A DNA stretch of 64,000 nucleotides, taken from assembly GCA_964596015.1 (NCBI GenBank), contig CAZQSB010000001.1, positions 118,023-182,022 of the forward strand. Direction: 5' to 3'. The translations under genes and the position numbers were made by a program. This DNA comes from an uncultured bacterium. GTDB taxonomy: Bacteria; Joyebacterota; Joyebacteria; Joyebacterales; Joyebacteraceae. The notes beneath the pieces were generated by a model, which was given only the letters and a program-made list of their open reading frames with translations, had not been told where the DNA came from and did no database searches. Shown piece by piece: positions 28,765 through 61,825 of the stretch. Within the stretch, counting starts at the first letter, position 1. Every line of letters begins with the position of its first letter.

Positions 28765-29571
28765 TCACGGCGGAGGGTCCTCCGGCGCCGTCAGCGCCGC
28801 GGCGACGTCCGCGAGCGTGACGAGGTCGAGCGCGTTGTGGTGGAACACCGTCAGCATGTCCGATGGGTCTGCCGTCCGCACGAATCGATGGTATGCCGCC
28901 GGGATCTCCTCGCCCGGGATGTCCCCGGTCCTCCTGCGGCCGCAGACGCGCCACTCCAGCGTCTGGAGCCTGCAGTCCGGTAGAACCCCGCGCCACCGGC
29001 GCCGCGCGTGGTGCAGCAGGTCCACGTGGACAGGTTCCGCCGGAGACTCGATGCCGTGCACGGCGAACCGGTCGCGCAGCACCGGCAGGTCGAACGCCTT
29101 CCCATTGAACGATACGATCATCGACGAGGAGGCGAGCAGCCTCAGCCACTCCGCGAGGAGCGCCGGCTCCTCCCTGTAGTCCCTGGCGAACACCTGGCGG
29201 AGGGTCAGCGTCGTCCCCGAGACGCGCATCGTCCCGAGGAGGAACACCATGTTCCCGGCCAGGCCCGTCGTCTCCGTGTCGACGAAGACAGCTTCCTCGG
29301 GACGCCGCACGAGTTCGAGGATCTCCTCGTGGATGTCGTCGCGTCCGCGGTGCGCCTTCCGCGCCGCCGCGAGCCTCGCGGCCAGCGCGGCGGCCTCGGA
29401 GGCCGGAGCGAGTTCCTCGAACGTCCTCTCGACGATCAGGACATCCCCGTCGTCGACGATCCTCCGGAGACCGGCGAGATCCCGCGGCCTCTCGGGCCGC
29501 GGACCGCGTCCGCTCCGGGACGCTCTCCCAAGCCCGGAGAGCCTCTCCTTGAACGCGTCACGCGGGCTCAT
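28765..29571 (-). CDS. RNase H-like 3'-5' exonuclease domain protein (YprB/MrfB-like)
   Basis: Motifs FVDTETTGL and SFNGKAFDLPVL are present, with the conserved H...D further on. It overlaps the epimerase stop by 14 nt. Confidence 0.75.
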   Translation of the reverse strand: MSPRDAFKERLSGLGRASRSGRGPRPERPRDLAGLRRIVDDGDVLIVERTFEELAPASEAAALAARLAAARKAHRGRDDIHEEILELVRRPEEAVFVDTETTGLAGNMVFLLGTMRVSGTTLTLRQVFARDYREEPALLAEWLRLLASSSMIVSFNGKAFDLPVLRDRFAVHGIESPAEPVHVDLLHHARRRWRGVLPDCRLQTLEWRVCGRRRTGDIPGEEIPAAYHRFVRTADPSDMLTVFHHNALDLVTLADVAAALTAPEDPPP

Positions 29572-31566: not shown

Positions 31567-33048
31567 ATGAACGCGCTCCTGGTCTACCCCGAGTTCCCCG
31601 ACACCTTCTGGAGCATGAAGCACGCTCTCAGGCTGGCCGGCAAGAAGGCCACCGCGCCTCCGCTCGGCCTCGTCACCATCGCGGCCATGCTGCCCGACGA
31701 CTGGTCTCTCCGGCTCGTCGACCTCAATATCGAGGATCTCGACGACAGCGATCTGGACTGGGCCGACGCCGTGCTCCTGAGCGGCATGATCATCCAGAGG
31801 GACGCCGCCCGGGCGATCATCGACCGCGCGAAGGCGAAGGGTCTGATGACCATCGCCGGCGGCCCGCTCTTCACGACGGAGCCCGAGAACTTCGACGACG
31901 TCGACCATCTCATTCTGGGCGAGGGCGAGGTGACGCTGCCCATGTTCCTTGCCGACCTCGAGAACGGCACGCCACGCCACGTCTACACGTCCGACGAACA
32001 TCCCGACATCAGGAACTCCCCTGTGCCGCGGTGGGACATCGTGCATCCCACGGCCTACACGAACCGCTCCGTCCAGTACTCGCGCGGCTGCCCCCACAAT
32101 TGCGACTTCTGCAGCGTGACCCAGCTCTTCGGTCACAGATGGCGCACCAAGACCGTCGAGCAGGTCATCGCTGAGCTGGACGCCATCTACGACTCCGGAT
32201 GGCGCAACTCGATCAACTTCGTGGACGACAATCTCGCCGGGCGCCCGAGGGTCCTCAAGGAAGAACTCCTCCCCGCCCTCATCGAGTGGCGTCGCGGGAA
32301 GGACGCGATGCCGTTCGGCACCCAGATCGGCATCGAGATCGCGGACGACCCGGAGCTCATGGCGATGATGGTCGAGGCCGGGTTCGCCTCCGTCTTCATC
32401 GGCATCGAGTCCGTTGACGAGGCGAGTCTCTCTGAATGCAACAAGCGGCAGAACCAGAACCGCGACCTTCTCGAGGACGTCCGCCGCATCCAGCGCGCCG
32501 GCCTCATGGTGACCGGCGGCTTCATTGTGGGCTTCGACCACGACGAGCCGGCTGTCTTCGACCGCATGACCGAGTTCATCCAGAAGAGCGGCATCACGAC
32601 CGCGATGGTCGGCGTCCTGCAGGCCCCGTCGGGAACGAAGCTCTTCGAGCGACTGCAGTCGGAGGGACGGATCGCCGGGGAGATGACGGGCGACAACGTG
32701 AACGGCCTCACGAACGTCGTGACCAAGATGGACCGTTCGACGCTGCAGCAGGGATACCGCCGCATGCTGCGCAGGCTGTATTCGGCCGACCAGTACTACG
32801 CGCGCATCCGCACGTTCATCAGGAACTACCGACCGCCGAGACGCCGACCCCCGAGACTCCGCGGCTGGCACATCAGGGCGTTCTTCCAGGCGCTCTACGA
32901 GCTGGGGATCGCGCGACGCGACGGGTGGCGCTACCACGTCCTGCTCTGGTGGACGCTCTTCCACAAGCCCCGCGCGTTCCCGACGGCCATCACGCTGGCG
33001 ATCGCCGGGTATCACTTCCAGCTTCTGGCCGACACTCTTCCCGAGTAG
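31567..33048 (+). CDS. B12-binding domain radical SAM protein with a DUF4070-type C-terminus
   Basis: It has an N-terminal cobalamin-binding-like Rossmann region and the radical SAM cluster motif CPHNCDFC. The C-terminal helical region is typical of DUF4070. Confidence 0.9.
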   Translation: MNALLVYPEFPDTFWSMKHALRLAGKKATAPPLGLVTIAAMLPDDWSLRLVDLNIEDLDDSDLDWADAVLLSGMIIQRDAARAIIDRAKAKGLMTIAGGPLFTTEPENFDDVDHLILGEGEVTLPMFLADLENGTPRHVYTSDEHPDIRNSPVPRWDIVHPTAYTNRSVQYSRGCPHNCDFCSVTQLFGHRWRTKTVEQVIAELDAIYDSGWRNSINFVDDNLAGRPRVLKEELLPALIEWRRGKDAMPFGTQIGIEIADDPELMAMMVEAGFASVFIGIESVDEASLSECNKRQNQNRDLLEDVRRIQRAGLMVTGGFIVGFDHDEPAVFDRMTEFIQKSGITTAMVGVLQAPSGTKLFERLQSEGRIAGEMTGDNVNGLTNVVTKMDRSTLQQGYRRMLRRLYSADQYYARIRTFIRNYRPPRRRPPRLRGWHIRAFFQALYELGIARRDGWRYHVLLWWTLFHKPRAFPTAITLAIAGYHFQLLADTLPE

Positions 33049-35362
33049 TTCCGCCGACGATCAGCCGGAGAAGCAGCCTCGCCGATTCCTTGTCGGGGAT
33101 CGGCCATCCACCCTGCGCGTCCGGGTCCTGCTGGATCGGGGGCCGAAGGACGGGCAGCCCGACGCACGACGGACATCCCTCCTCGCAAGGGCACTCCTCG
33201 ACGAGGTCGAGACAGCCCCGCATCAGCTCCTCGAAGCGGTGGTATCCCTGCTCGACGAAGCCCAGGCCCCCCTCATAGCGGTCGTACAGGAACATCGTGG
33301 GCGCCCCGGTGTTCGAGCTTTCGACAATCCCTCCGATGTCCCGCCGGTCGCACATGGCGAAGAGCGGCAGCACGCTGATGGCCATGTTCCGGATGCCGAC
33401 GAGCCCCTCGACGGGGTTCTTCCCCTGCTTCCTGACCGCGGCCATCACGTCCTTCGCGGGGATGAACCAGAGCGCGCGCGTCTCGAGATGGAAGGGCGGC
33501 AGGTCGAGATTGCACCAGCCGATGGAGTCCATCTTGTAGAACTGGATCTTCTTGAAGGCCGCCGTCACCCACGTGACCGTGGCGTCGCCGAAGACCAGCC
33601 GCCCGTCCTCCCGCGGAATGTGCTCGCGCTCCGCCTCGACGCGTATCGATGACTCGAGGATGGGTTGCGTGTAATAGTCGACCTCCTTCTTCTCGACGTA
33701 GGCGATCTTCTGCTCGAGGTCGAGGTCGCGCACGAAGTAGGTCTCGCCCTCGTGAAGGTAGATCGCCTCCGGGTAGACGAGCTCGAGCGCCGACACTCCG
33801 TCGACGACACCGACCGTCTGGTTCTCGTTGCCGACGTCGACGATGGTGTACGTGTCGTCGGAGATGGTCCGGAGGCTCAACTGGCGCGCGGGATACTCGG
33901 TCGAGGCCCAGTAGTGGCGTCCGTCGAGCTCCCGCACTTCATGGAACTCCTCAAGAAGATCCAGGATGGGCTCCGTCAGTTCACCGAAGAGCCTCTCGTC
34001 CTCCTCCCGGACCGGGAGTTCGAAGGCTGCGCATCGGAGGTGCTTCGCCAGGATGTAGCGGTTCTCGGGATCGATGACGGCGCTCTCCGGCGACTGACGG
34101 AAGAAGTACTCACCGTGACGCATGAGATACTGGTCGATCGGGTCGTTGTAGGCGACGAGAACGGCCAGCGACTCGTCGGACGTCCTGCCCGCGCGGCCGG
34201 CCTGCTGCCACGAGCTCGCGATCGTTCCCGGGAAGCCGACGATGATGGCGGCGTCGAGGCTCCCCACGTCGATGCCGAGCTCGAGCGCGTTCGTGCTCGC
34301 GACGCCCATGAGCTCGCCGCTGAAGAGCTGACGCTCGATCTCGCGACGCTCCTCCGGCAGATAGCCTCCCCGGTAGGGGCGGATCTTCCGGGCATACTCG
34401 GGCTTGGTCCGGGCCAGCGTGTCCTTGGCGTACCTGTAGATGAGCTCGGCGACGACGCGCGCCCGGCCGAACGCGATCGTCTGAAAACCCGAGGCGATGA
34501 GCTCGGCCATGAGCCAGTGGCCCTCGACGTTCGAGCTTCGCCGCTCCATCTCCGCCTCGTCGAGGAACGGCGGGTTCCAGAGCACGAAGTACTTCCTGCC
34601 CCTGGGACTGCCGTCGGTGTCGACCGTCGCGAACGGCAGGCCGGTCAGCCGCTCCGCCAGCTCCCCCGGATTGGCGATGGTCGCGCTCGAGGCGATGAAC
34701 TGCGGGTTCGAGCCGTAATGCTCGCACACCCGCCGGAGACGCCGGAGGACGTTCGCGACGTTCGAGCCGAAGATGCCGCGGTAGGTATGGATCTCGTCGA
34801 CCACCACGTACCTGAGGTCCTTCAGGAAGCGGTTCCACTTGGCGTGATACGGGAGGATCGCGGCGTGGAGCATGTCGGGGTTCGAGAGGATGATGTTCCC
34901 CTCGTCGCGGAGCTTCCGCCGCGTGTGCCGCGTGGTGTCGCCGTCGTAGGTCCCCGAACGGACGGCCTCGCCGATGCGACGGTCGAGCTCGCGCAGCCTC
35001 ACGAGCCCGCGCTGCTGGTCCTGCGCGAGCGCTTTCGTCGGGAAGAGATAGAGCGCCTTCGATGAGGGCTCCTCCAGGAGCGTCTCGATGACGGGGATGT
35101 TGTAGCAGAGCGTCTTGCCGGAGGCGGTGCCTGTCACGACCACGACGTTCCTGCCGTCGCGGACGCCCTCGATCGACTCGACCTGATGCGAGTAGAGCCG
35201 TTCGATGCCGGCCGCCGTGAGCGCTTCGGAGAGAGGCGTCGGGAGAGGCTCCTCGAGCTCACCGTACCGCGCCTCGCGCGCGGGGACGACCTCGACATGG
35301 CTGATCTGTCCGCGGTAGTACCTGTGGTGCCGCAGCGATTCGAGGAACCCGGCGATGGTCAT
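32990..35362 (-). CDS. DEXH-box helicase with a C-terminal DUF1998 zinc domain (MrfA/YprA-like)
   Basis: ATG at 35362 (MTIAGFLESL). Motif I is GTASGKT and motif II is VVDEIH. Motif VI is QQAGRAGR. The C-terminal Cys cluster is CPCEEGCPSC. The ORF upstream of 35362 is low-complexity and overlaps the next gene. Confidence 0.9.
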   Translation of the reverse strand: MTIAGFLESLRHHRYYRGQISHVEVVPAREARYGELEEPLPTPLSEALTAAGIERLYSHQVESIEGVRDGRNVVVVTGTASGKTLCYNIPVIETLLEEPSSKALYLFPTKALAQDQQRGLVRLRELDRRIGEAVRSGTYDGDTTRHTRRKLRDEGNIILSNPDMLHAAILPYHAKWNRFLKDLRYVVVDEIHTYRGIFGSNVANVLRRLRRVCEHYGSNPQFIASSATIANPGELAERLTGLPFATVDTDGSPRGRKYFVLWNPPFLDEAEMERRSSNVEGHWLMAELIASGFQTIAFGRARVVAELIYRYAKDTLARTKPEYARKIRPYRGGYLPEERREIERQLFSGELMGVASTNALELGIDVGSLDAAIIVGFPGTIASSWQQAGRAGRTSDESLAVLVAYNDPIDQYLMRHGEYFFRQSPESAVIDPENRYILAKHLRCAAFELPVREEDERLFGELTEPILDLLEEFHEVRELDGRHYWASTEYPARQLSLRTISDDTYTIVDVGNENQTVGVVDGVSALELVYPEAIYLHEGETYFVRDLDLEQKIAYVEKKEVDYYTQPILESSIRVEAEREHIPREDGRLVFGDATVTWVTAAFKKIQFYKMDSIGWCNLDLPPFHLETRALWFIPAKDVMAAVRKQGKNPVEGLVGIRNMAISVLPLFAMCDRRDIGGIVESSNTGAPTMFLYDRYEGGLGFVEQGYHRFEELMRGCLDLVEECPCEEGCPSCVGLPVLRPPIQQDPDAQGGWPIPDKESARLLLRLIVGGTTREECRPEAGSDTRRSPA

Positions 35363-35381: not shown

Positions 35382-36092
35382 TCATGTGACAGGGAACTGA
35401 CTCCAGTGACGGCCTTCGAGCTCTCTGCCGTTCCGCTTCTTGTTGAAGCCGCCCCACTGCTTGAAGAAGAAGGGGACTCCCTTGGCCAGGCACTGGTCGC
35501 GGATATCCATGACCCACCGACCATCGATGGGTCTCGCTCCCGGCCCTGACTCACCGCCGACGATCACCCAGTCGATTCCCGAGAGATCCACGCCCTTGAG
35601 TGGCCCCAGCAGAGGTTCGAGAGAAAGGAACTTCAGAGCCGCTCCTGTGCCTCTCAGGCAATCCGCCCTCCAGAGGTAGTCGGCCGTCTCGATGCTCACG
35701 CCCATCCAGATATTGCCTGCCCAGGGAAGCTCGCTTGTGTACTTCGCAAGACGGTCGGCGCGCTTCGTCAGAACCTGGAACCTGTGCCAGTATGCCTGGT
35801 TCATGGTCTTGAAGACGCGATGGATGAAGCTGAATTTGAGTTCCTCATGGAAGAGATCGCTCATCGAGTTGACGAAGACGTGACGCGGCTTCTTCCAGCG
35901 CAGGGGGATCTCCAAAGAGGACTCGTGGGGACTCAACTCGAATCCCCTCTCGTAGTTTGGGGAGCCCATTGCCTGCAGTCTTCGAGCCATGCGCTCGGCG
36001 TAGCAGTTGCGGCAGCCCGGGCTGATCTTCGTGCAACCTGTAACAGGGTTCCAGGTCGCGTCGGTCCATTCGATGCTGGAGTTGCCTGCCAT
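35382..36092 (-). CDS. DUF5131 (phage Gp37/Gp68 family) three-Cys-motif protein
   Basis: Motifs [27 protein letters not shown] (C-x6-C-x2-C), [26 protein letters not shown] and FFFKQWG are present. G+C is lower than in the flanks. Confidence 0.85.
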
Positions 36093-36109
36093 AGAGGCTT
36101 CCCTCCCAT

Positions 36110-36964
36110 CTAGAACAGCTCCTGCTGAGGGATGGAGTACTTCCGAGCCTGCGCGAAGAACTCCCTTCCAAGAGCGTTGCGGCTGTAGAACACCAGGTGA
36201 TAGAGAATCCTCCGGTTGCTCGGTAGTCGAATCGGCACAGCATGTTCGCGTCCGCCATGCTCGTACCCAAGTGACAACATGCGCTCGTCGTAGAGATCAA
36301 GAAGCAGTTTCTCGGGAGCATCCCCTGCTCTTCTAGCATCTTCGAGCCGCGCTCTCCAGTCTGGGACACCTGTGAAGCCAGCAACTGGATCCCTGTCTGA
36401 GGTTTCATAGCCCCGACAGAACCGAGCGAACTGCATTTCCGTTGGCACGAGCACGAGGAAGTCCATGTACCGCGTCGAGAGTTTCTCAACTGTCGCGAAG
36501 TCCAAGTTGCTCATACCCCAGGGGTCTGCGAAGCAGAAACCAAGGGAGCTCTCGCCTCGTCTGAGGGCAGGAAGGGCGTCCAGAACTTGATCCACCATCT
36601 CGTTCGTATTGCCCAGCAGAAAGCAACAGTCAGATCCCGGCTTGTACCTCAGCACCCGTGACCTGAGTGCGTCGAGACACTCCGCGTCCTGCTCGCAGAA
36701 GACGTAGTGCGTGAATGGCTCCTTCACCGACAAGGCAAGAAGAGGAGAGGTCAAGACGACACGGCCCGCGTCTACATCCATCGCCTTGCCCGCACCGGCA
36801 AAGAGGTCCACATAGACCCTGTGAGTCCACTTCTTCTTCATCGAAGAAGAGAACAGCTCCGCATAGCCCAGCAGAAGCGAGTGCTTGCCCCGCGCGTAGC
36901 TCTTGATAGGGGGAGTCGGAAGACCGTCATCCTCAGCAGGCCCCAGTGCGTCTGGCATTCCCAT
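36110..36964 (-). CDS. tcmP: Three-Cys-motif partner protein TcmP-like (methyltransferase-like motifs)
   Basis: 284 aa. It contains VDLFAGAG (SAM motif I-like) and FADPWG (motif IV-like). It sits immediately upstream of DUF5131, the defining genomic context of TcmP. The start may be the ATG at 36958. Confidence 0.7.
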
Positions 36965-36971
36965 CCCTCTC

Positions 36972-37391
36972 TCACTCCCCGATGATCTTCACGAGGACGC
37001 GCTTCCGCCGCCCGCCGTCGAACTCGCCGTAGAAGACCTGCTCCCAGGGCCCGAAGTCAAGCTTCCCCGCCGTCACGGCGACGACCACCTCCCGGCCCAT
37101 CACCTGGCGCTTGAGGTGCGCGTCGCCGTTGTCCTCGCCGGTGCGGTTGTGCTCGTAGGCGCTGACGGGCTCGTGTGGCGCGAGCCGTTCGAGCCAGCGC
37201 TCGTAGTCCTTGTGGAGGCCCTTCTCGTCGTCATTGATGAAGACGGAGGCCGTGATGTGCATCGCATTCACGAGCACGAGCCCCTCGGTGACGCCCGACT
37301 CCTCGAGGGCCTCCTCGACCTGCGGCGTGATGTTGATGAACGCCCGTCTGCCGGGCGTGTTGAACCAGAGTTCCTTGCGATACGACGTCAT
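36972..37391 (-). CDS. yjbQ: YjbQ/UPF0047 family protein (secondary thiamine-phosphate synthase-like)
   Basis: 139 aa. The signature regions are [11 protein letters not shown] and GDAHLK...[16 protein letters not shown]. Confidence 0.88.
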
Positions 37392-37852
37392 CCTGCCCCA
37401 CCTTCCTCGTGGATCTTCCGCCTCAGTTCATCGAACCTCGGTGCGACCTCCTCAGCCCACCCTTCGATGCCGATCTCGCGGATCCTCTCCAGGTTCCGGA
37501 GCGCGCCCTGATACTGGGGCCTTGCGTGGAACTCCGCAATGGTCTCACACGTCTCCCAGTCGTCGCACTCGACGCAGAGACGGACGTTCCGCTCCCTTGC
37601 GCAGGCGAGGATCCTGCAGTCGGGGCTCCAGTGCCTGTCGAGCGGCCCCCGACAGCTCTCGCAGACGATGTCGCTCGCCTTGCACTCGACGCCGGCGTTC
37701 GCCACGAGCCATTCGGCGATCTTCTGCTGCGCCGCCGTGTTGCCAGTGATGTGCGCCTCCCGCATGTCGCAGACCCCGCAGTAGATGCCGCACGGCGCGA
37801 GCAGCTCCAGGTCGACTCTGTACACCGCTTCCCCCTCAGGCCCCGAGTTCAT
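37388..37852 (-). CDS. DUF3795-like cysteine-rich protein
   Basis: Cysteine patterns present are [24 protein letters not shown] and [10 protein letters not shown]. Its stop overlaps the yjbQ start (ATGA). Confidence 0.7.
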
Positions 37853-38765
37853 CCTCCAGGAGGTCCATCATCAGCTCCGCGTTGTTGGCGGCGTGGCCCG
37901 CGTGGCAGTTGTTGAAAAACGCATAGACCTTCTTCGCCCTCGACTCGAGATCGAGGAGCTTCGCGGACCACTCCGAGAGCTCGGCCCCGGAGTAGTCGTA
38001 GTCGTAGCGGTCGCCGCCCTTCCCCCACCAGTTCTTCGCGTTCCGACCGTGGAGCCTCACGTACCCGATGTCGGTCGTGGCCTCGACCACGGGCGGGATG
38101 AGGCCCTTGAGCGACGGCTCATCGACCGAGCAGTATCCGAGACCCTCTTCTCTGAGAAACGTGAAGGTTGAGTCGTCCATCCACGAGTCGTGGCGGAACT
38201 CGACGAAGAGCGGGTCGTCGGGAAGGCCGTTCCTGAGGTACGCGAGATGCTCCAGGGCCTCATCGTCCTTCTTGAACTTCCAGGGAAACTGCGCGAGGTA
38301 CCCCCCGAACTTGCCCGCCTCACGGAACGGCGCGACGGCGTCCTGGAACGCGCGGAAGTGCGAGGGATCGTTCTCGATCTCGTGCGTCATCCCCTTGTAG
38401 AGCTTCACAACGAACTCGAACCCCGGCGGCGTCCTCCGCTCCATGCGCTCGAACATCCGAGGGTCGGGAACGCGATAGTAGCTCGTGTTGATCTCGACGA
38501 CGTCGAAGTGCCGAACGTATTCCTCGAGCATGCGGTTCCTGGGAGTGCGCTCGGGATAGAACGTGCCGACCCAGTCGGCGAAGCTGTATCCGGAGGTCCC
38601 GATGCGGATGCGTCCCTCGCGCCCGAACCAGCGGACCCCGGGCGGGCTCTCCCTGCTGTCCCAGGCTCCCGCGCCGTCGGCGAGTCCGTTCCTCTTCTTC
38701 GGAAGGTCGCCGAACAGGTCGCCCTGCGCGTTGTTGGCTCTCACCTCGTGCCGTCCTCCCTGCAA
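37836..38765 (-). CDS. DUF72 (YecE-like) TIM-barrel protein
   Basis: The N-terminus reads IRIGTSGYSFADWVGTFYP...FDVVEINTSYY, and the C-terminus reads YAFFNN. The first approximately 50 aa may be an extension and the start is uncertain. Confidence 0.85.
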   Translation of the reverse strand: MQGGRHEVRANNAQGDLFGDLPKKRNGLADGAGAWDSRESPPGVRWFGREGRIRIGTSGYSFADWVGTFYPERTPRNRMLEEYVRHFDVVEINTSYYRVPDPRMFERMERRTPPGFEFVVKLYKGMTHEIENDPSHFRAFQDAVAPFREAGKFGGYLAQFPWKFKKDDEALEHLAYLRNGLPDDPLFVEFRHDSWMDDSTFTFLREEGLGYCSVDEPSLKGLIPPVVEATTDIGYVRLHGRNAKNWWGKGGDRYDYDYSGAELSEWSAKLLDLESRAKKVYAFFNNCHAGHAANNAELMMDLLEDELGA

Positions 38766-38796: not shown

Positions 38797-40227
38797 CTAT
38801 CGTCGCGGGCCGCCCCCGTCGTCGATGTCCTGGAACCTCAGCATGTCGGAGGGGCTCGACGAGAGGCCCGGCGGCAGCGCGATGGTGTCGAGATGGGGAG
38901 CGGCGTCGTGCCATCCCGCCATGATCGACTGCGGCCGGTCCTCGCCCAGCCCCATCCGCATGAAGCGCGGCTCCGACACGCGGTGCTTCGAGTACCACAT
39001 CTTCGCGTTCCTCGAGACGAGGCGGGCGCGCGTGATGGCCTCCTCCCCGAACTTATCACGGATCGCGTCGAGAGCGTTCAGGAGCTTCCGGTGCGAGTCC
39101 TCGTCCTTCTGCCGGAAGAGGTCGACCTGCAGAACGTCCGGCACCCGGACGAGCCCCGAGCAGTTGACCCCCACGAGCCTGATGGCCTGTCCCGGGCGCC
39201 AGTGACGGTGCATGAGGTCGCGCGCGACGCGGTAGATGACCCTCTCCTCGTCGGTGTAGAACTTGATCTTCCTCTGACGGCCCACCGAGTCGAAATCCGA
39301 GAACCTGAGGCGCATGGAGATGACGTCCCCCATGTACTCCTTCTTCCGCATGCGCCTCGCTACCTGGTCGCAGAGGCGAAGGAGCACCTTCTCGGCCTCG
39401 CGGATGTCCCACGTGTCCTCGGGCAGCGTGTGTTCATGCCCCATCGACTTGACCGGCATCCCTTCGTAGTAGGGAACGACCGGCGTGTCGTCCTGCCCGC
39501 ACGCCATCAGGTGGAGGATCTCCCCCATGATGCCGAAGCGGCGCCGGAGCATGGCGACCGGGAACTCCGAGAGCTCTCCGATGGTCGTGACCCCCATCAT
39601 GCCGAGGGCCACGGCGGTCTTCGTCCCGACGCCCCAGATGTCGGTGACCGGACGGTCGCGGAAGACCTTCATGAACTCGCCCGGGTAGATGACGGTCATG
39701 CCGTCGGGCTTGTCTCTCCCTGAGCACATCTTGGCGACGAGCTTGTTCGGGCCGATGCCGACCGACGCGGTGATGCCGAAACGCTTCCGGATCGTCTCCT
39801 TGATCTCCCGGGCGACCTCGGTCGCGTTCTCCCACGTGCACTCGGTCCCGGTCATCTCGACGAACGCCTCGTCGATCGAGTACGGCTCGACGATGGTCGA
39901 GTAGGACTTGTAGATGCGCAGGAGTTCGAGCGAGACGTAGATGTACTGGCCCGGATTCCCCTCGACGGCGACGACGTGCGGGCAGCGCCGGAACGCCTCC
40001 GCCGTCGGCATCGCCGAGTGGATGCCGTACTCGCGCGCCTCGTACGACGCGGCCGCCACGACGCTCCTGGTGGTCGGCTTGCCGCTGACGATGACCGGCA
40101 GGCCACGGAGTTTCGGTCGGCACATCACCTCGACCGACGCGAAGAACGCGTCCATGTCGATGTGGAAGACAAGGCGCTCATCCCTTGATGAGCCGACGCG
40201 CGCTTCCTTTCTGTGACGTCCCAGCAT
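38797..40227 (-). CDS. dinB: DNA polymerase IV (Y-family) with a C-terminal extension
   Basis: ATG at 40227 is preceded by GAGAGAGG. Motifs HIDMDAFFASVE and SIDEAF are present, followed by palm/fingers/little-finger order. A tail of about 70 aa lies beyond the usual end. Confidence 0.93.
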   Translation of the reverse strand: MLGRHRKEARVGSSRDERLVFHIDMDAFFASVEVMCRPKLRGLPVIVSGKPTTRSVVAAASYEAREYGIHSAMPTAEAFRRCPHVVAVEGNPGQYIYVSLELLRIYKSYSTIVEPYSIDEAFVEMTGTECTWENATEVAREIKETIRKRFGITASVGIGPNKLVAKMCSGRDKPDGMTVIYPGEFMKVFRDRPVTDIWGVGTKTAVALGMMGVTTIGELSEFPVAMLRRRFGIMGEILHLMACGQDDTPVVPYYEGMPVKSMGHEHTLPEDTWDIREAEKVLLRLCDQVARRMRKKEYMGDVISMRLRFSDFDSVGRQRKIKFYTDEERVIYRVARDLMHRHWRPGQAIRLVGVNCSGLVRVPDVLQVDLFRQKDEDSHRKLLNALDAIRDKFGEEAITRARLVSRNAKMWYSKHRVSEPRFMRMGLGEDRPQSIMAGWHDAAPHLDTIALPPGLSSSPSDMLRFQDIDDGGGPRR

Positions 40228-40263: not shown

Positions 40264-41142
40264 TCAGTTCTTCTTCGCCGTCCGCTTCTTCGTCCGTCGC
40301 CGAGCCTTCGTCCGTCGCGTCTTCTTTCCCCGCGCCATCCGGGACCGCGGCTGACACGTCGGGCAGATGAAGCTCGTCGTACTTCCGGTCTTGAGCTTCT
40401 TCACGGGCGTGCCGCACGTCGGGCACGGTTTCCCCTCGCGGTACGCGACGAGGAGGTCGTCGACCGAGAAGCGACCGGGGCGGCCGAAGAGGTCCCGCTC
40501 GTAGAACGCTCCGCCCTTCTTGAGACTCGGTTTCAGACCGTCACGGATCGCCTTCCACAGCCCGTCGACCTCCTCGTCGGTCAATGTGTCGAGCCCGCGA
40601 AGCGGATGGAGCCCCGCCAGAAAAAGAATGTCGTGCACGTAGGCGTTCCCGATGCCGGCGACGCGCTCCTGGTTCAGAAGGAACGACTTCACGCCGCCCC
40701 GTCTGCCGTGGACGAGCTCCCGGAACTGTCGCTTTGTGAGATCGAGCACATCGGGGCCGAGCTTCGCGATGGGCGCGTGGTCTTCGAGCCCGGCCGCGAC
40801 ATGCGTGTGGCCGAACCACCAGAAATTGACGGCGAGGCTTCTCCCGTCGTCGAGGTGGAAGGTGACCCGCCGTTTCTCAGGGAGTTCGTCGGACGGGACG
40901 AGCAGAAGCTCGCCTCCCATGCCGAGGTTGATGAGAAGATACCCATCCGACATGTCCGCGACGATCCACTTGCCGCGGTGCGACACGTCCTCGAAGCGCG
41001 CGCCCTCAAGGCGCTTCGAGAACGTCCGCTTCGAGACGTTCAGGCACTTCGGCTGCAGGACCTCGATGCCGGTGATGGTCCGCCCCGTGAGATGCTTCCG
41101 CAACTCGCTCGCCCTGTTCGCTATCTCGGGAAGCTCGGGCAT
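40264..41142 (-). CDS. mutM: Formamidopyrimidine-DNA glycosylase (Fpg/Nei family) with a Lys/Arg-rich tail
   Basis: It has the N-terminal MPELPEI, an H2TH region, and the zinc finger CPTCGTPV...CPTCQ. A 27-aa basic tail follows (RGKKTRRTKARRRTKKRTAKKN). Confidence 0.9.
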   Translation of the reverse strand: MPELPEIANRASELRKHLTGRTITGIEVLQPKCLNVSKRTFSKRLEGARFEDVSHRGKWIVADMSDGYLLINLGMGGELLLVPSDELPEKRRVTFHLDDGRSLAVNFWWFGHTHVAAGLEDHAPIAKLGPDVLDLTKRQFRELVHGRRGGVKSFLLNQERVAGIGNAYVHDILFLAGLHPLRGLDTLTDEEVDGLWKAIRDGLKPSLKKGGAFYERDLFGRPGRFSVDDLLVAYREGKPCPTCGTPVKKLKTGSTTSFICPTCQPRSRMARGKKTRRTKARRRTKKRTAKKN

Positions 41143-41145
41143 CCT

Positions 41146-41463
41146 CTAGGAACCCTCCAGGTCGGTCCGCGTGAGAAGCCAACCCATCGTGCGGGTGTCG
41201 TAGACCAGCTCGAAGAAGTCGTCTTCGGTCGTGACGACCGAGAAATGATGATGCTTGTACTGCCCCTCGCGCACTTCCCAGCGGCCGGTGATGCGCTCGA
41301 CGTCGACGACGCGGTTTCGCCACCGGAAGCGCAGGGGGTCGAGCCGTCCTCCGCTGAACCGCGTCAGCACGGTGACGGCCTCGTTGATCTCCTGGATCAT
41401 AGGGTCGGGTCCCCTCGATGCTGTCGGTCGCATGTCCCTGTCCCTCGTTCCCATCGACTCCAC
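41146..41463 (-). CDS. Small hypothetical protein (85-105 aa)
   Basis: Its stop lies 3 nt before the fpg start. The core reads LDPLRFRWRNRVVDVERITGRWEV...FFELVYDTRTMGWLL. The start is uncertain, with candidates at 41463, 41454 and 41400. Confidence 0.5.
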   Translation of the reverse strand: MESMGTRDRDMRPTASRGPDPMIQEINEAVTVLTRFSGGRLDPLRFRWRNRVVDVERITGRWEVREGQYKHHHFSVVTTEDDFFELVYDTRTMGWLLTRTDLEGS

Positions 41464-41626: not shown

Positions 41627-42394
41627 CTACGGGAGCGCGCCGACAGGCATGAGGCCGAACGGCTCGATCTCGGGCTCGCCGAGCACGCCCGCTACATCCT
41701 CGTCGGAGAACGCGCCGACGAACACGGTACCCAGGCCCAGGCTCTCCGACTGCAGATAGATGTTCTCCGCGACCGCGCCGACCTCGATGTGAACGTATCG
41801 CTCCGCCCGGTCGCCGTACTTGGACGCCGTCCTGGACGGCACCGCGCCGATGACGACCACGGCCGCCGCGTCGGCGACCCACTCCTGCGAGAGCGCTGCG
41901 TCCGAGAGCATGGGCCGCACGTCCGCGATCTCGACGACCGCGAGGTCGTGCGCCTCCGGGTCGTAGTGATAGAGCCCCGCCGGCAGGTCCGTGACGCGTC
42001 CAGCCGCGACGTAGATCTCGATGGGGTAGAGCGCGCCGGCCGACGGAGCGGCCCGGTGTCCGTCGCCCGTGACGCCCTGCGCGGCCCAGAGGAGCTGCGA
42101 GAGGTCGGCGAGCGGCATGGGCTCATCCGAGTAGGCCCTGACCGAGCGCCGTCCGCTGATCGCCCGCTCGACCGGCATGGAGCTGATCCGGGGCGCCGGC
42201 AGCGCGACCCGGTCGGGCCGGACCGCCCGTGCCGCGGAGAGGTCGGTGGTCGGTGTGTCCACCGAACGCTCCATCTCCTTCGCGGGTCCGTCCAGCACCA
42301 GGAGAGCGCCCATGATCAGGATGACGAGCGCCACGAAGGAGAGCGCCTGGGTCACCGATCCGCTCCTATTGCTTCTCCGCACGTTGTTCATCAC
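41627..42394 (-). CDS. SagB-type dehydrogenase / nitroreductase-fold protein with an N-terminal TM anchor
   Basis: The TM helix is ALSFVALVILIMGALLV. The fold signature reads RRSVRAYS...LLWAAQG...PSAGALYPIE...YHY. Confidence 0.8.
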   Translation of the reverse strand: MMNNVRRSNRSGSVTQALSFVALVILIMGALLVLDGPAKEMERSVDTPTTDLSAARAVRPDRVALPAPRISSMPVERAISGRRSVRAYSDEPMPLADLSQLLWAAQGVTGDGHRAAPSAGALYPIEIYVAAGRVTDLPAGLYHYDPEAHDLAVVEIADVRPMLSDAALSQEWVADAAAVVVIGAVPSRTASKYGDRAERYVHIEVGAVAENIYLQSESLGLGTVFVGAFSDEDVAGVLGEPEIEPFGLMPVGALP

Positions 42395-42472: not shown

Positions 42473-43096
42473 CTAGAACTTCCGCATCAGGCCGACGACC
42501 GTCCCGAGGAGCCGCGTCTCCGCGTCGCCCTCCCTGAGCACGATGTCGTCGTACTCGGGGTTCCGCGCCTCGAGAACGACCTGCCCCTTCCGACGCGAGT
42601 ACACCTTGACGGTGGCTTCGTCGTCGATGAGCGCGACGACGACATCCCCCGTCTTCGCCGTCGGCTGCGGGTTCACCGCGACGACGTCGCCGTCGAGGAT
42701 GCCCGCGTCCCTCATGCTGTCGCCCGTGACCCGGAGCGCGAAGCATCCGTCGCCCCGCACGAACATGTCGTCGACCGCGATCTCGTCCTCGACGTTCTCG
42801 ATGGCGAGGATCGGCGCGCCGGCCGCGACGCTGCCGACGAGCGGGATCCGGGTGACGTCCGCCCTCGCGGCGGGCGCGTGGTGCTCGAGCCACTCGATCC
42901 CGCGCGAGATCCCCTTGTTCCGACGGATGTACCCGCGCTCCTCGAGCGCGTCGAGGTGGTAGCGGACCCCGTTCGTCGAGGCGATGCCGAACTCGTCGCC
43001 TATCTCGCGGATGGTCGGCGACCGGTCGTGGTCGCGGATGGTCTCGACGATGAAGTCGAGGATCCTCTGTTGTGTCGGTGTCAGGTCGTGTCGCAT
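42473..43096 (-). CDS. lexA: LexA repressor
   Basis: ATG at 43096. It has a winged-HTH N-terminus (PTIREIGDEFGIASTNGVRYHL), the cleavage site VAAG, Ser in GDSM, and Lys in ATVKVY. Confidence 0.93.
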   Translation of the reverse strand: MRHDLTPTQQRILDFIVETIRDHDRSPTIREIGDEFGIASTNGVRYHLDALEERGYIRRNKGISRGIEWLEHHAPAARADVTRIPLVGSVAAGAPILAIENVEDEIAVDDMFVRGDGCFALRVTGDSMRDAGILDGDVVAVNPQPTAKTGDVVVALIDDEATVKVYSRRKGQVVLEARNPEYDDIVLREGDAETRLLGTVVGLMRKF

Positions 43097-43172: not shown

Positions 43173-43186
43173 TGCACATCTGTGCA
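43173..43186. promoter_or_regulatory. Putative LexA (SOS) box 1
   Basis: TGCACATCTGTGCA is a 14-bp dyad (TGCAC-N4-GTGCA). It lies just downstream of the predicted -10 element of lexA. Confidence 0.65.
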
Positions 43187-43188
43187 CC

Positions 43189-43217
43189 AGACTACTGCAC
43201 ACATGTGCACCCGTCAA
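43189..43217 (-). promoter_or_regulatory. Predicted lexA operon promoter
   Basis: On the minus strand: TTGACG (43217-43212), a 17-nt spacer, then TAGTCT (43194-43189). It lies about 90 nt upstream of the lexA ATG. Confidence 0.45.
43196..43209. promoter_or_regulatory. Putative LexA (SOS) box 2
   Basis: TGCACACATGTGCA has the same dyad arms. It lies inside the -35/-10 spacer of the predicted lexA promoter. Confidence 0.65.
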
Positions 43218-43220
43218 GGC

Positions 43221-43251
43221 AAAAAGAAGGACCGCCCTGATGAGGCGGCCC
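43221..43251 (-). terminator. Intrinsic terminator of the ars-like operon
   Basis: On the minus strand: gggccgcc-tcatcag-ggcggtcc (8-bp stem with one G-U pair), followed by TTCTTTTT. It lies 74 nt after the arsC stop. Confidence 0.65.
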
Positions 43252-43324
43252 TTTCGATACGATGCGCGCTGCCGATACTGAGGATCCGGCGGCCCGGACG
43301 ACCCCCCGTCCGCCGCCGCCCGAA

Positions 43325-43753
43325 CTAGCGACCGACCTCCTCGACCCACGCCTTGACCTTCGCTTCGATCTCGTCCCGGACCCGACGGAACGTCTCGAGC
43401 CTCTCCTCCTCGGCGCCCTCGTGCGCGGCCGGGTCATCGAACGGCCAGTGCGCGCGCTGTCCGACGCCGGGGAACGCCTTCGGACATTGCTTCTCGGCCT
43501 CAGCGCAGACCGTCACGAGATACCCGAAGTGCTTCTTCCCGAGATACTCGTCCACGCTCTTCGAGCGCTGCCCCGCGAGGTCGTATCCGACCTCCTCCAT
43601 GACCTGCCGGGTCATGGGGTGGATCTCCGACGGCTCGAAACCCGCGCTCGCCGCCTCGAAGCGGTCGCCCCCATATCTCCGGAGGAACGCCTCCGCCATC
43701 TGGCTTCTCGCCGTGTTGCCGGTGCACAGGAAGAGCACGGCCGGTCTGTTCAC
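43325..43753 (-). CDS. arsC: Arsenate reductase, LMW-PTP/thioredoxin-coupled type
   Basis: The GTG start overlaps the upstream stop (GTGA). The P-loop is CTGNTARS and the distal cysteines are VCAEAEKQC. Confidence 0.9.
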
Positions 43754-50271: not shown

Positions 50272-51033
50272 TTACCAGCCGAGCGCCAGGATGAGGATCC
50301 TCTGAACGGCGACGAAATAGGGGTCGAGGATGTTGAAGAACAGGAGCGCGATGATGACGAACATGCCGTAGCGACCGAACGCGAGGTAGCGGCCGGCGGT
50401 ATCGGGCGGCAGGAACGCCGCGACGAGGCGCGACCCGTCGAGCGGCGGCACCGGCAGCAGGTTGAAGAACGCGATGATCAGATTGATCCACGCGCCGACC
50501 ATGCCGACGAACTGCGCCCACGCGGGCCAGCCGAGGAGAGCGGCCGCGCGATAGAGGAGAACGTAGGCGAGGAACTGCAGCAGGTTGGACGCCGGACCCG
50601 CGGCGGAGCTCAGCGCGAACCCGCGGAGCGGGTCTCTGAAGTACCTGATGTCGACCGGCACCGGCTTCGCCCAGCCGATGACGAACGGGAGGCCCGTGAT
50701 GCGGCTTGTGAGAAGCAGGAAGCCCGGGACCAGAATGCTGCCGAAGGGATCGATGTGTGGGATCGGGTTCAGAGTGAGGCGGCCCATTCTCCGGGCGGTC
50801 GGATCGCCGAGGCGCTCAGCCATGTAGCCGTGTGCCACCTCGTGGACAATGATGGCCGGGATGAGGACCGCGATCTGGATCGCGATCATGACCGGCTTCG
50901 GAATGCCGATACCGGTCTGCGTCGTCGCGACCGCGAGGATCTCTCTCAGGCCGATGCCGAGGAACCCGGCCGTCAGAAGCGCGGGGACGAAACCAAACTC
51001 GCTCGTCCGTTCGTTCACGGGCTCTCCTTCCAC
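50272..51033 (-). CDS. Site-2 protease family (M50) membrane metalloprotease
   Basis: It has a GTG start. Motifs HEVAHG and NLLPVPPLDG are present, with multiple TM helices. Confidence 0.85.
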   Translation of the reverse strand: MEGEPVNERTSEFGFVPALLTAGFLGIGLREILAVATTQTGIGIPKPVMIAIQIAVLIPAIIVHEVAHGYMAERLGDPTARRMGRLTLNPIPHIDPFGSILVPGFLLLTSRITGLPFVIGWAKPVPVDIRYFRDPLRGFALSSAAGPASNLLQFLAYVLLYRAAALLGWPAWAQFVGMVGAWINLIIAFFNLLPVPPLDGSRLVAAFLPPDTAGRYLAFGRYGMFVIIALLFFNILDPYFVAVQRILILALGW

Positions 51034-51713
51034 GCGTCGACCAGTCGGACGATGTCCGGGAACGCCCGCATGACCTCGCAGTCGACCTCGTCGTAGGCGC
51101 CGACGGGGTCGAAGAGCACGGGACGGATCCCAACGCTCCGGGCGCCGACGACGTCGACGGCGTAGTAGTCGCCGACGTAGGCGACGTCCTCAGCCGAGAG
51201 ACCGCCCAGAGCGAGCGCGGCGTCGAAGATCGAACGCTCGGGCTTGCTGGACCCGATGACCGCTGAGTCGATCACGAAGTCGAAGTCGTCCCTGATGCCG
51301 AGCGCGCCGAGTCTCTCATCGAGCCGCCCGTCCGAGTTCGAGACTATTCCGATCACCTCGACCCGGGTCCGGAGCTCGTCGATCGTCTCCCGGTATCCAT
51401 CGACCGGGACCTTCCAGATGCCGAGGTCCCGGTCGTTCGCTTCTCTGGTGAGCTCGATGGCTGCCGGGATGTCCGGCTCCGGCACGCCGAGGTGCCTATA
51501 GAAGGGAGTGTAGTAGATGTCCCAGAAGCCCGAGACGTCCCGTCCGCCGGATGCGCCGACGGCCTCGTCGAACGCCGATCGGGCGCGCGTCTCCGCCACG
51601 ACCGCGTCGTCGACATCGATGTCGATGCCGAGCTCTCCGGCGACGTCGCGGTAGATCGAGTAGTCTGGAAAGATGAGCGTGTTGCCCGCGTCGAAGTAGA
51701 CGCCCCGGATCAT
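51015..51713 (-). CDS. HAD-superfamily hydrolase (subfamily IA-like)
   Basis: ATG at 51713. Motif I is VYFDAGNTL, motif II is IVSNS, and motif IV is GDYYAVD. The longer ORF N-terminus is Arg-rich and rejected. Confidence 0.85.
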   Translation of the reverse strand: MIRGVYFDAGNTLIFPDYSIYRDVAGELGIDIDVDDAVVAETRARSAFDEAVGASGGRDVSGFWDIYYTPFYRHLGVPEPDIPAAIELTREANDRDLGIWKVPVDGYRETIDELRTRVEVIGIVSNSDGRLDERLGALGIRDDFDFVIDSAVIGSSKPERSIFDAALALGGLSAEDVAYVGDYYAVDVVGARSVGIRPVLFDPVGAYDEVDCEVMRAFPDIVRLVDAWKESP

Positions 51714-51736
51714 TGTCCCCCTCTTACGGTCGCGCG

Positions 51737-53131
51737 TCAGCTGCCGGCGGTCCTTTCCGCCAGTATGCCTGCATTCAGGGCGTGAAGCCAGGCGTTCTTG
51801 TAGTGCCTGAGAGCCGTCTTCTCGCTCCCGATCGGGCCGCCCTCGACGGCCAGTCCCTCGTCGAACGCGGTCCGCATCGACGAGGCCGCGAGAAGCGCGG
51901 TCTGAAGCTCCGCGTCCTCCCGCATACGCCGGTCGACCTCCTCGAGAAGCTCGAGACGGCGTCTCTGGTCGGCGTTGTCGCTCAAGCCGACGTCGCTCTT
52001 GAGACGCTCCTCGACGGCGTCGCAGACGCCGGCCACGAAGTTGCCCGTGTAGTAGACGCCGTACTCGACGAGCAGTCTGTCGGCCACGACGATGCGTTCC
52101 GCCAGAGCGCTCACGCGCTCGCTGACCGACTCCTCGAGCTCTCCCATCTCCATGATCTCGTCGAGCATGTCTCCGACGAGCTCCTGATCGTGAAGGAAGA
52201 GCTTCCATGGCACGTTGGCATGGTCCGAGTCCCCGAGAGAACCCTCGACCATCTCCAGCGTGACAAGGACCTCGTTGAGCGCGGTGGCCATGCCGCTGAA
52301 CGCCAGGCTCGACGTCCTGGCCAGCTCGAGCGCCGGCCTCATCCTGCCGGCGAGGCGGCGCGCCTCGCTCGTCGCGAGAAGCACCTCGTTCCACTCAGCG
52401 CTCAGAAGAGGGCTCCCGCTCTCCCGAATCTCCCACACAATCTGCTCGAGTTCGTCGGCCTTCGCAATCACCTCGTCGCTGATGGTGCCGAGGTTCGACG
52501 TGTTCTGGTTGATGCTGACGGCCGACTCCGCGATGGCGCCGTACTCGCCCTTGTCGAGCGCGCGTCGTCCGCTCCGGGCGCTCGTCGACAGCTCACCGCC
52601 GATGCGGTCCGCCGCCTGTCCCAGCGCGAGGAGCCTGTTCACGGTCGACTCGAGGTTCCGTGCCACCGTGCGGCTCTCTCCGGCCGCCGACTCGTGCCAG
52701 ACGACGAAGCCGAAGAGGGTGTCGCGAACGGCGCCCTCGGCGGTCACGAGTCTCGATATCCCGCGGATGCCGAACGCCGAGTCGATCTCGCCGATCGCCG
52801 AGAGCGTCTCCTCGATGCGCTGCGTGACATCGGCCAGCTCGTTCGCGGAGACCAGCACCAGCCCCATGCCGCTCTCGCCGTCGGACTCGGCGAGAGTGAC
52901 GGCCTCAGCCGCGACGCCCTCGATGAACGCCCGGCGGTGCTCGAGCGACGCCTCCACAAGCCACTTCGGCAGCGGGACCTCGTATCCGTACCCGCTCTCG
53001 GGCGGCGCCGCGGGGGTCATGTAGGAGTCCCTCTCCTGCGCCGCCACAGGCGACGCCGAGAAAAGGACCGCGACCAGAAGTCCCATCGTGAGAAGTCCAG
53101 GTGCTCGTCGCGACATCACTGTCCTCATCAT
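51737..53131 (-). CDS. Secreted hypothetical protein (helical, about 460 aa)
   Basis: The starts ATGATG at 53131/53128 follow GAGGAGGAG. The signal peptide is LLTMGLLVAVLFSASPVAAQ. No family was recognised. Confidence 0.6.
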   Translation of the reverse strand: MMRTVMSRRAPGLLTMGLLVAVLFSASPVAAQERDSYMTPAAPPESGYGYEVPLPKWLVEASLEHRRAFIEGVAAEAVTLAESDGESGMGLVLVSANELADVTQRIEETLSAIGEIDSAFGIRGISRLVTAEGAVRDTLFGFVVWHESAAGESRTVARNLESTVNRLLALGQAADRIGGELSTSARSGRRALDKGEYGAIAESAVSINQNTSNLGTISDEVIAKADELEQIVWEIRESGSPLLSAEWNEVLLATSEARRLAGRMRPALELARTSSLAFSGMATALNEVLVTLEMVEGSLGDSDHANVPWKLFLHDQELVGDMLDEIMEMGELEESVSERVSALAERIVVADRLLVEYGVYYTGNFVAGVCDAVEERLKSDVGLSDNADQRRRLELLEEVDRRMREDAELQTALLAASSMRTAFDEGLAVEGGPIGSEKTALRHYKNAWLHALNAGILAERTAGS

Positions 53132-53242
53132 CTCCTCCTCAGTCGTGCATGCGACGCACGCACGGTCACTCGCCGCGAGCCGCGGTATGATAACACAGGG
53201 CTCCCGGACGCACCAATCCGCCCGGCGGGCGCCCTGCGCCTC

Positions 53243-53271
53243 TTGCCCTTCCGGTCCTCTCCATGCATAAT
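53243..53271 (+). promoter_or_regulatory. Possible sigma70-type promoter for the DUF3857 cluster
   Basis: TTGCCC (53243-53248), a 17-nt spacer, then CATAAT (53266-53271). It lies 71 nt upstream of the ATG at 53342. Confidence 0.35.
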
Positions 53272-53341
53272 CGTTTCCCGAAGTCCCGATGTAACACACG
53301 AAAACACCAACACAGCGTGGAACTGCGCGAAAGGAGCAGGC

Positions 53342-57274: not shown

Positions 57275-57327
57275 AGGGAGCCGAGGCGGACCCGACGACG
57301 CGGGACCGCGGACGACAGGGAGAGCTC

Positions 57328-60318: not shown

Positions 60319-60366
60319 GAAGCGTACGGCGACCATCGCTCCGCCCGAGCGGCGCAGGCTGGAACC

Positions 60367-60413
60367 AAAAGAAGAAGGGGGTCGGCAGTGAGGATGCCGG
60401 CCCCCTCTTCGTT
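60367..60413. terminator. Bidirectional intrinsic terminator between convergent genes
   Basis: The stem is gggggtcggca / tgccggccccc (11 bp, one G-U) with loop gtgagga. It is flanked by AAAAGAAGAA upstream and TCTTCGTT downstream. Confidence 0.65.
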
Positions 60414-60454
60414 GTCCGGCGGGTCATTGAAGCGGCCCGCCGTGGTGTGACGCC

Positions 60455-61825
<1,371 letters not shown>

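Follow-up and report, generated by a model that had tools for sequence, protein, structure and literature searches.

A TcmP-DUF5131 gene pair with an exchangeable tcmP in a putatively LexA-controlled operon and in SOS gene clusters of many phyla

Here, we focus on a pair of adjacent genes, tcmP and the gene of a DUF5131 protein, in a 64-kb stretch of DNA from an uncultured bacterium of the Joyebacterota (the window hereafter). The pair makes up the tenth and eleventh genes of a twelve-gene operon that runs from lexA to mrfA on the minus strand, head to tail and with short or negative spacers, and a survey of other genomes places the same pair in the SOS gene clusters of many phyla. The reading that we favour, while stopping short of calling it probable, is that the two genes form an accessory module, exchanged horizontally, which occupies a variable slot upstream of mrfA in a LexA-repressed operon and which would be an SOS-induced nucleic-acid modification unit with TcmP as its exchangeable specificity partner. 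The two families and their pairing are already annotated; their SOS wiring across phyla and the exchange of tcmP alleles are not found in the searchable literature. An earlier account of this DNA, made from the letters alone (the sequence-only reading), had considered the function of TcmP/DUF5131 pairs unassigned, and our literature searches likewise returned no functional study of DUF5131, TcmP, Gp37/Gp68, COG4422 or PDC-M41/M30.

Both genes of the pair lie on the minus strand. The first, tcmP (36110-36964), encodes a protein of 284 aa that matches TIGR04474 (E 1.3e-33, 117.1 bits against a cutoff of 53), and the second (35382-36092) encodes a DUF5131 (Gp37/Gp68) protein of 236 aa that covers the full length of PF07505, profile positions 1-243 of 243 (E 4e-99, 331 bits against a cutoff of 28.9). 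The family assignments of the sequence-only reading are thereby borne out, as are the motifs that it quoted, all of which are present at the places given: TcmP has DLFAGAG at residue 53 and ADPWG at residue 146, and DUF5131 has, at residue 19, a peptide with the cysteine motif C20-x6-C27-x2-C30. Spacing is tight throughout, with 7 nt from the yjbQ stop to tcmP, 17 nt from tcmP to the DUF5131 gene and, as had been stated before, 19 nt from the DUF5131 stop to mrfA. Both open reading frames (ORFs) are intact and retain all conserved motifs. The pair also corresponds to the PADLOC candidate system PDC-M41, both hidden Markov models of which match the adjacent genes (PDC-M41A weakly, E 1.8e-17; PDC-M41B, E 1e-114).

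The exchange of tcmP is seen in a strain that is otherwise nearly identical to the window (locus L093). Here the aligned flanking DNA is 97-100% identical, apart from a missing DUF3795 gene, and the encoded YjbQ (99.3%), DUF5131 (99.6%) and MrfA (99.5%) proteins hardly differ, but the TcmP proteins are 50.7% identical. DNA identity breaks down at codon 2 of tcmP and is regained at the ribosome-binding site that precedes the DUF5131 gene. Judged from this alignment, the L093 tcmP is a precise allelic replacement of one gene. At least three tcmP allele classes are held by the four carriers of the pair in this group (the window, L093, L001 and L002), and among loci whose DUF5131 proteins are 80-90% identical, the TcmP proteins are either 74-85% or 49-68% identical. 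DUF5131, in turn, is 67-83% identical in 41 homologues from several phyla, chosen from the best database matches, and about 70% identical among its closest 120 database relatives, again from several phyla; its C20, C27 and C30 are invariant in 42 homologues. By sequence comparison, DUF5131 is strongly conserved, and tcmP exists in classes of about 50% mutual identity, the exchange of which is precise.

That the pair lies in an SOS operon had been claimed in the sequence-only reading, and the region upstream of lexA is in agreement with it. Two tandem putative LexA operators, TGCACATGTGTGCA and TGCACAGATGTGCA (43173-43209, minus strand), lie 23 bp apart from start to start and follow a -35-like hexamer, TTGACG. 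They are the two perfect matches to TGCAC-N4-GTGCA upstream of lexA, and the 64-kb window contains no others; we take this pattern to resemble the box reported for Fibrobacter. The tandem boxes are kept before lexA in L001, L002 and L086, and L088 has one box. The lexA gene itself (42473-43096, minus strand) encodes 207 aa with LexA_DNA_bind and Peptidase_S24 domains, 95% identical to the LexA of L001; its homologues place the start at the ATG at 43096, and the mechanical call of a GTG at 43210 falls in the operator region. Further upstream, a terminator-like hairpin with a T-run (43227-43253, minus strand; an 11-pair stem with 7 G-C pairs) closes the preceding arsenic/LMWPc cluster. No convincing internal terminator was found in the operon, the other two terminator-like matches between 32700 and 43400 being at or inside coding sequence. 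The operon has, on this reading of its upstream region, one SOS-type promoter with two operator-like, putative boxes, and we infer that it is LexA-repressed and that the pair is co-transcribed from the lexA promoter.

How far the association with SOS genes extends was surveyed with a TcmP profile scan of one genome per species, which gave the 80 loci most similar to the query, in many phyla, 79 of them with a callable TcmP. In 72 of the 79, tcmP is followed by an adjacent and co-directional DUF5131 gene. SOS markers (lexA, S24 peptidase, dinB, imuB, dnaE2 and splB-like genes), sought from five genes upstream to six downstream, are found near the pair in 28 of the 79 loci. A canonical lexA with its DNA-binding domain falls within these limits in 11 loci, 8 of which have it immediately before the pair and in the same direction; at an assumed background of 0.5%, the binomial probability of 11 such neighbours is about 3e-13. 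The lexA-linked loci include Burkholderiales, Binatia, Gamma-, Beta- and Deltaproteobacteria, Chromatiales and Lentimicrobiaceae, and putative palindromic operators lie upstream of lexA in L026 (TACTGTATATAATTACAGTA), L030, L047 and L068, and in L029 as well, where lexA is further upstream. An Aminicenantes genome has the order lexA-dinB-dnaE2-tcmP-DUF5131. The pair therefore occurs in the SOS gene clusters of many phyla.

A second arrangement is found in Bacteroidota and Methylomirabilota, where, in most of 11 loci, the gene that immediately precedes tcmP is a splB-like radical-SAM (S-adenosylmethionine) gene. Six of the Bacteroidota loci (L033, L038, L051, L058, L062 and L079) have a short, non-canonical S24 lexA and dinB divergent from a cluster of the type ligT (2H phosphoesterase)-splB-like-tcmP-DUF5131, although no splB-like gene was detected in the L079 cluster. 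The divergent promoter regions of all six contain exact matches, often paired and 23 bp apart, to CTAA-N5-TTAG, the non-canonical LexA motif of Bacteroidetes (PMC8565304). The same study reports SplB-like genes as members of the SOS regulon, and its supplements do not mention the TcmP/DUF5131 family (PMC8565304); nor did we find a link of this family to SOS elsewhere in the searchable, and incomplete, literature. Exact scans with eleven LexA-box patterns (two of them Bacteroidetes motifs from PMC8565304) upstream of predicted operon starts had come back mostly empty. Crude ORF starts and degenerate boxes made such a scan too strict; in its place, the Bacteroidetes motif was sought directly and the sequence ahead of the lexA genes was inspected.

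The last gene of the operon, directly downstream of the pair, is an mrfA-like DEXH helicase gene (32990-35362, minus strand; 790 aa). Its product has the DEAD, Helicase_C, WHD_HRQ1 and MZB domains, in line with the helicase neighbour described in the sequence-only reading, the DUF1998 of which we take to be equivalent to MZB (the MrfA Zn-binding domain). It scores 764 bits against TIGR03817, below the cutoff of 874, and its nearest named MrfA homologues are from Candidatus Eisenbacteria. MrfA and MrfB are mitomycin repair factors of Bacillus subtilis, a DEXH helicase with a Zn-binding domain and a DnaQ-like exonuclease. The window helicase has the MrfA domain set, MZB included, but the pair does not lie next to MrfA homologues outside four related genomes, and presumably, given the composition of the B. 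subtilis system, it is not part of MrfAB.

It had been proposed that the pair is coupled to this helicase, working with it physically or functionally as a translocase-delivered modification or lesion-reversal unit. The 19-nt spacing and the shared operon, which hold for the window, L001, L002 and L093, speak for such coupling, as do distant variants of the pair near unrelated DEAD-box helicases, one on the Acidovorax plasmid p1-T1 and one in Sinorhizobium (S.) meliloti, where the Hna helicase SMa2245 adjoins the TcmP protein SMa2243 (PMC12445080). However, an MrfA-like helicase is the neighbour in 1 of the 79 TcmP loci, which represents the window's own clade, probably Candidatus Eisenbacteria; and Pfam tallies of the two genes that follow the pair show no helicase among their 25 commonest families, nor any family that recurs. 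The Acidovorax helicase, moreover, is without an MZB domain. The relatives that retain the operon are equally telling about the slot directly upstream of mrfA. It holds the pair in the window, in L093 (MrfA 99.5% identical), in L001 (89%) and in L002 (78%); it is empty in L086 (MrfA 91%), L096 (78%) and L088 (76%), and in L086 the mrfA start follows the yjbQ stop after 3 nt; and it is taken up by different cargo, an alpha/beta hydrolase in L087 and sdhCDAB in L095. With MrfA proteins 76-91% identical to that of the window and no pair, or other genes, beside them, the content of the slot varies such that the adjacency to mrfA is better described as a permissive slot than as a conserved partnership. 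It looks positional, and helicase coupling, largely refuted by this distribution, strikes us as very improbable.

The base composition of the pair is likewise that of an accessory element. Its 1583-bp interval has 58.4% G+C, as compared with 66.6% for the window (standard deviation 2.1% for windows of that size), and this is the minimum of all 1583-bp windows taken in 10-nt steps, 0.06% of which are as low. G+C at third codon positions is 0.68 in TcmP and 0.77 in DUF5131, against 0.84-0.94 in the nine other operon genes tabulated. Lines of 60 nt within 35401-36240 have 28-40 G+C, and the lines at 35221 and 37021 have 44 and 40, where the mean over the window is 40.0 with a standard deviation of 3.6. 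The hand counts from which the pair had been called compositionally foreign are thus reproduced to within one or two, and the windowed calculation agrees with them. What does not stand is the dip as the mark of one recent insertion, for it is also present in L001, L002 and L093, and in most of 55 loci tested the pair has more A+T than its host, be the host G+C high or low: in high-G+C hosts, 0.52 for TcmP and 0.56 for DUF5131 against 0.65 for the host, and in low-G+C hosts, 0.33 and 0.40 against 0.40. The AT-richness is accordingly a trait of the whole family, an accessory module, and a single recent insertion is rejected as its cause. No integrase had been noticed near the pair, nor any flanking repeat, and a search of its borders for integrases, flanking direct or inverted repeats, target-site duplications and attC-like structures also found none; spacers of 7 and 19 nt leave no room for such features.

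The two proteins themselves offer some information on what the pair may do. An alignment of 75 TcmP sequences has Y51, G59 and D147 invariant and D53, L54, F55, G57, C90, D119, N121 and P148 each at least 90% conserved. The conserved elements are YVDLFAGxG (motif I), the acid of FCE after strand 2, GDxN, and FxDP followed by an aromatic residue (motif IV), so that the SAM-type motifs I and IV named in the sequence-only reading recur in these homologues; an N-terminal region with EDDGL, K27 and Y34 is conserved as well. The AlphaFold2 model of TcmP (predicted local distance difference test, pLDDT, 94) finds RlmJ as its best Foldseek match in the PDB (E 2e-6, TM-score 0.52), followed by the DUF519 protein LPL1258 and by further class I methyltransferases including Trm1 and METTL16; 180 PDB matches have E<=1e-3, and among the 50 listed nearly all are SAM-dependent methyltransferases. 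Sequence and profile searches of the PDB with both proteins gave nothing useful except a marginal match of the TcmP profile to RlmJ (E about 1) at the AGAG and SPLLA motifs, and a single-sequence search of the PDB found no solved-structure relative of either. The models support an RlmJ-like class I methyltransferase fold for TcmP. RlmJ, the 23S rRNA N6-methyladenosine (m6A) 2030 methyltransferase (DUF519), has the same AGAG and SPL(L/I)A SAM-site motifs and the same position of the DP-x-aromatic motif IV; it acts alone on rRNA as a housekeeping enzyme, and TcmP differs in being accessory and hypervariable and in having a radical-SAM protein as its partner. At the level of the family, and counted in clusters of 50% identity, the TcmP profile reaches 838 of them at E<=1e-30 and 6,744 at E<=1e-3.

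For DUF5131, which has more than 8,000 database clusters at E<=1e-20, RadicalSAM.org lists Megacluster-5-2 with the motif CX6CX2C and places spore photoproduct lyase in the same Megacluster 5 (PMC9477430). This is exactly the motif of the window protein, and it upholds the suggestion of an Fe-S or radical-type centre made earlier from its cysteines. Foldseek matches of the AlphaFold2 model include NifB (E 8.5e-4), spore photoproduct lyase (E 5e-3), which has the highest TM-score (0.51), and other radical-SAM enzymes. These modest matches would fit a spore-photoproduct-lyase-like radical-SAM fold as the predicted structure. Spore photoproduct lyase and SplB-like (COG1533) proteins share with DUF5131 the radical-SAM classification, Megacluster 5 and that TM-score of about 0.5. 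In contrast to the CX3CX2C of spore photoproduct lyase, however, DUF5131 has CX6CX2C; it is about 100 residues shorter and, unlike the lyase, its subfamily has TcmP next door in the 72 loci counted above. Lyase activity is not implied by the likeness.

Several signs connect the pair with genetic conflict. Neighbours of the restriction-modification type are found in 8 of the 79 loci, and distant plasmid variants of the pair have the reverse gene order and lie in defence islands. One of these, L092 (Acidovorax sp. T1 plasmid p1-T1, record 50358-60633), is a single co-directional block of an MmeI-type IIG restriction-modification enzyme, a DEAD helicase, a GIY-YIG/T5orf172 nuclease, DUF5131, a TcmP-GMT-wHTH fusion, a second TcmP and a PIN protein, and looks like a composite defence island. 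The PADLOC candidates PDC-M41 and PDC-M30 have the same pairing of TcmP followed by DUF5131, but in the window the pair is surrounded by an SOS operon, and no defence gene is close to it. PDC systems are candidates deduced from a defence-island setting. The sequence-only reading had offered a phage-derived defence or anti-defence module as an alternative. Its phage origin is a weak alternative, as a tblastn search of 50,697 phage genomes found no TcmP and PHROGs has no TcmP family, while the defence or conflict part is retained in view of the PDC-M41 match and the swapping of tcmP. A scan of IMG/VR added a single weak TcmP locus and a Foldseek search against viral structures only generic methyltransferases, and after these searches a TcmP-type pair borne by phages was dropped. 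DUF5131 alone is present in 181 of the 50,697 phage genomes, and among the records listed its identity does not exceed about 55%. The Gordonia phages Bosnia (gene 44, L085) and Bakery (genes 63-64, L084) carry it without TcmP; one Gordonia phage DUF5131 gene lies between an integrase and an immunity repressor, and another overlaps the stop codon of a gene with a 526-aa product described as a DNA methyltransferase.

The order of events that we would propose for the pair begins with DNA damage, upon which LexA would be cleaved and the operon, including the pair, de-repressed. TcmP would bind SAM and select or flip a base of its nucleic-acid substrate, for which DNA is the likeliest candidate, and DUF5131 would hold a [4Fe-4S] cluster on C20, C27 and C30 and carry out radical-SAM chemistry on the same substrate. 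TcmP would then be the exchangeable specificity determinant. In this respect, the pair may be likened conceptually, with no homology implied, to the specificity subunits of restriction-modification systems, in which a variable component likewise accompanies a conserved catalytic one. The yafN-yafO genes in the dinB operon of Escherichia coli, a small mobile module in a LexA-controlled repair operon, offer another parallel that is conceptual only and equally free of homology. As to its role, we regard a conflict-type function as more likely than core lesion repair and rank it slightly ahead; by this we mean strain-specific DNA marking, restriction- or addiction-like control of foreign or mobile DNA, or hitch-hiking on SOS operons. 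The preference comes from the swapping of tcmP alleles and the patchy presence of the pair, and its AT-richness points the same way.

A number of observations weigh against this reading. The surveyed loci, being those nearest to the query, are biased towards this subfamily, and 51 of the 79 have no recognised SOS marker. The identity of about 70% among DUF5131 relatives from several phyla is less what an arms race would produce than what an invariant substrate, a DNA lesion for instance, would allow, and the co-operonic partners are repair and tolerance genes, which favours repair. The nearest fold relatives of TcmP (RlmJ, Trm1 and METTL16) are RNA methyltransferases, so the substrate could be RNA. 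The DUF5131 model has a pLDDT of 80.6 overall and of 62 around the cysteine loop, its fold matches are modest (TM-score about 0.5, E 1e-3 to 1e-2) and generic TIM barrels match as well. LexA binding, Fe-S binding, SAM cleavage and methyl transfer are predictions from sequence and models.

These points lead directly to the nearest competitor, a dedicated repair function, in which the pair would, in the manner of spore photoproduct lyase, directly reverse or process a DNA lesion by radical-SAM chemistry as a true member of the SOS regulon, with TcmP as a lesion-recognising, base-flipping partner. The recurrence of lexA, splB-like, dinB, imuB and dnaE2 as co-operonic genes in many phyla is what such a function would leave behind, and it is helped by the megacluster and the fold match that DUF5131 has in common with spore photoproduct lyase, by the conservation just mentioned and by the absence of TcmP from phage genomes. 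The precise replacement of tcmP between near-identical strains and its discrete allele classes are, however, atypical of repair enzymes; close relatives dispense with the pair and retain the rest of the operon; and the low G+C of the pair relative to its hosts, together with the restriction-modification or defence neighbours of some loci, also tells against it. We consider dedicated repair credible but on the whole unlikely. An RNA-modification pair, in which TcmP would methylate and DUF5131 would radical-modify an rRNA or tRNA base under stress, compare RlmJ and RlmN/Cfr, could account for the fold relatives of TcmP and for the RlmJ sequence match, weak as it is, over the SAM-binding motifs. 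The genes that accompany the pair serve DNA repair, DNA polymerisation and restriction-modification rather than translation, and allele swapping is hard to square with an invariant RNA target; an RNA-modification pair seems improbable to us. The pair might, lastly, be a neutral or selfish passenger, a promoter-less cassette tolerated at sites such as operon ends and with no role in DNA damage. Patchy presence, AT-richness, location at or near the 3' ends of operons and unrelated cargo in the same slot would all be expected of one. Yet the enrichment next to lexA and other SOS genes is far above chance, the reading frames and their motifs are intact, and DUF5131 is under strong purifying selection, both between the window and L093 and among relatives from several phyla, and a mere passenger is accordingly a very slim prospect. 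The exchanged, SOS-induced module with a conflict-type role is the reading that we retain.

The remaining genes of the operon, all on the minus strand, are mostly those of an SOS or repair setting. After lexA come a nitroreductase-family gene (41627-42394; PF00881, E 2e-31) and a small ORF of 84 aa (41146-41400) with weak similarity to DUF6504 (PF20114, E 2e-4, just below the cutoff). The latter is conserved in L001 and L002 and also adjoins lexA in the Geobacter locus L034, and may be a small uncharacterised SOS protein. These are followed by an Fpg/Nei-family DNA glycosylase (40264-41142; Fapy_DNA_glyco, H2TH and zf-FPG), a DinB-like Y-family polymerase (38797-40227; IMS and IMS_C), a DUF72 protein (37836-38765; PF01904, E 2e-64), a DUF3795 protein (37388-37852; PF12675) and a YjbQ/UPF0047 protein (36972-37391; PF01894 and TIGR00149), which forms the upstream border of the variable slot as mrfA forms its downstream one. 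The DUF3795 gene, absent from the 99%-identical strain L093, appears as a clean gap in the alignment of its DNA with the window, and in L086 its place is between fpg and dinB. Several small genes of the operon are mobile.

Outside the operon, a B12-binding radical-SAM gene with DUF4070 (31567-33048, plus strand) runs convergently towards mrfA and shares 59 nt with the 3' end of the helicase gene. The window, L001, L086, L093 and L096 have this radical-SAM gene and L002, L087, L088 and L095 do not, a second presence/absence polymorphism at the end of the operon. Three genes past mrfA lies an RNase_H_2 (PF13482) exonuclease gene (28765-29571, minus strand), 99.3% identical to the L093 copy, which we take to belong to the MrfB/YprB family; the partner nuclease of MrfA may thus be encoded close by, in another transcription unit. 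On the other side, just upstream of the SOS promoter and separated from it by the strong terminator described above, is a low-molecular-weight phosphatase/ArsC-like gene (43325-43753, minus strand), and relatives also show ArsP and thioredoxin genes immediately upstream of the SOS promoter.

The inference of helicase coupling was attractive but misleading, having been based on adjacency in a single lineage, and is now corrected. DUF5131 is a large radical-SAM subgroup for which the searched literature holds no assigned function. It is conceivable, although we consider it unlikely, that the pair represents a previously unrecognised class of SOS-induced radical-SAM DNA modification or restriction-like systems, in which a conserved radical enzyme would be directed by a swappable specificity subunit with a methyltransferase fold. 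If that were true, bacteria would mark or attack DNA in a strain-specific manner upon sensing damage or upon prophage induction. The SOS wiring, and tcmP as an exchangeable allele beside a near-invariant enzyme, turn a pair of unknown function into testable biology.

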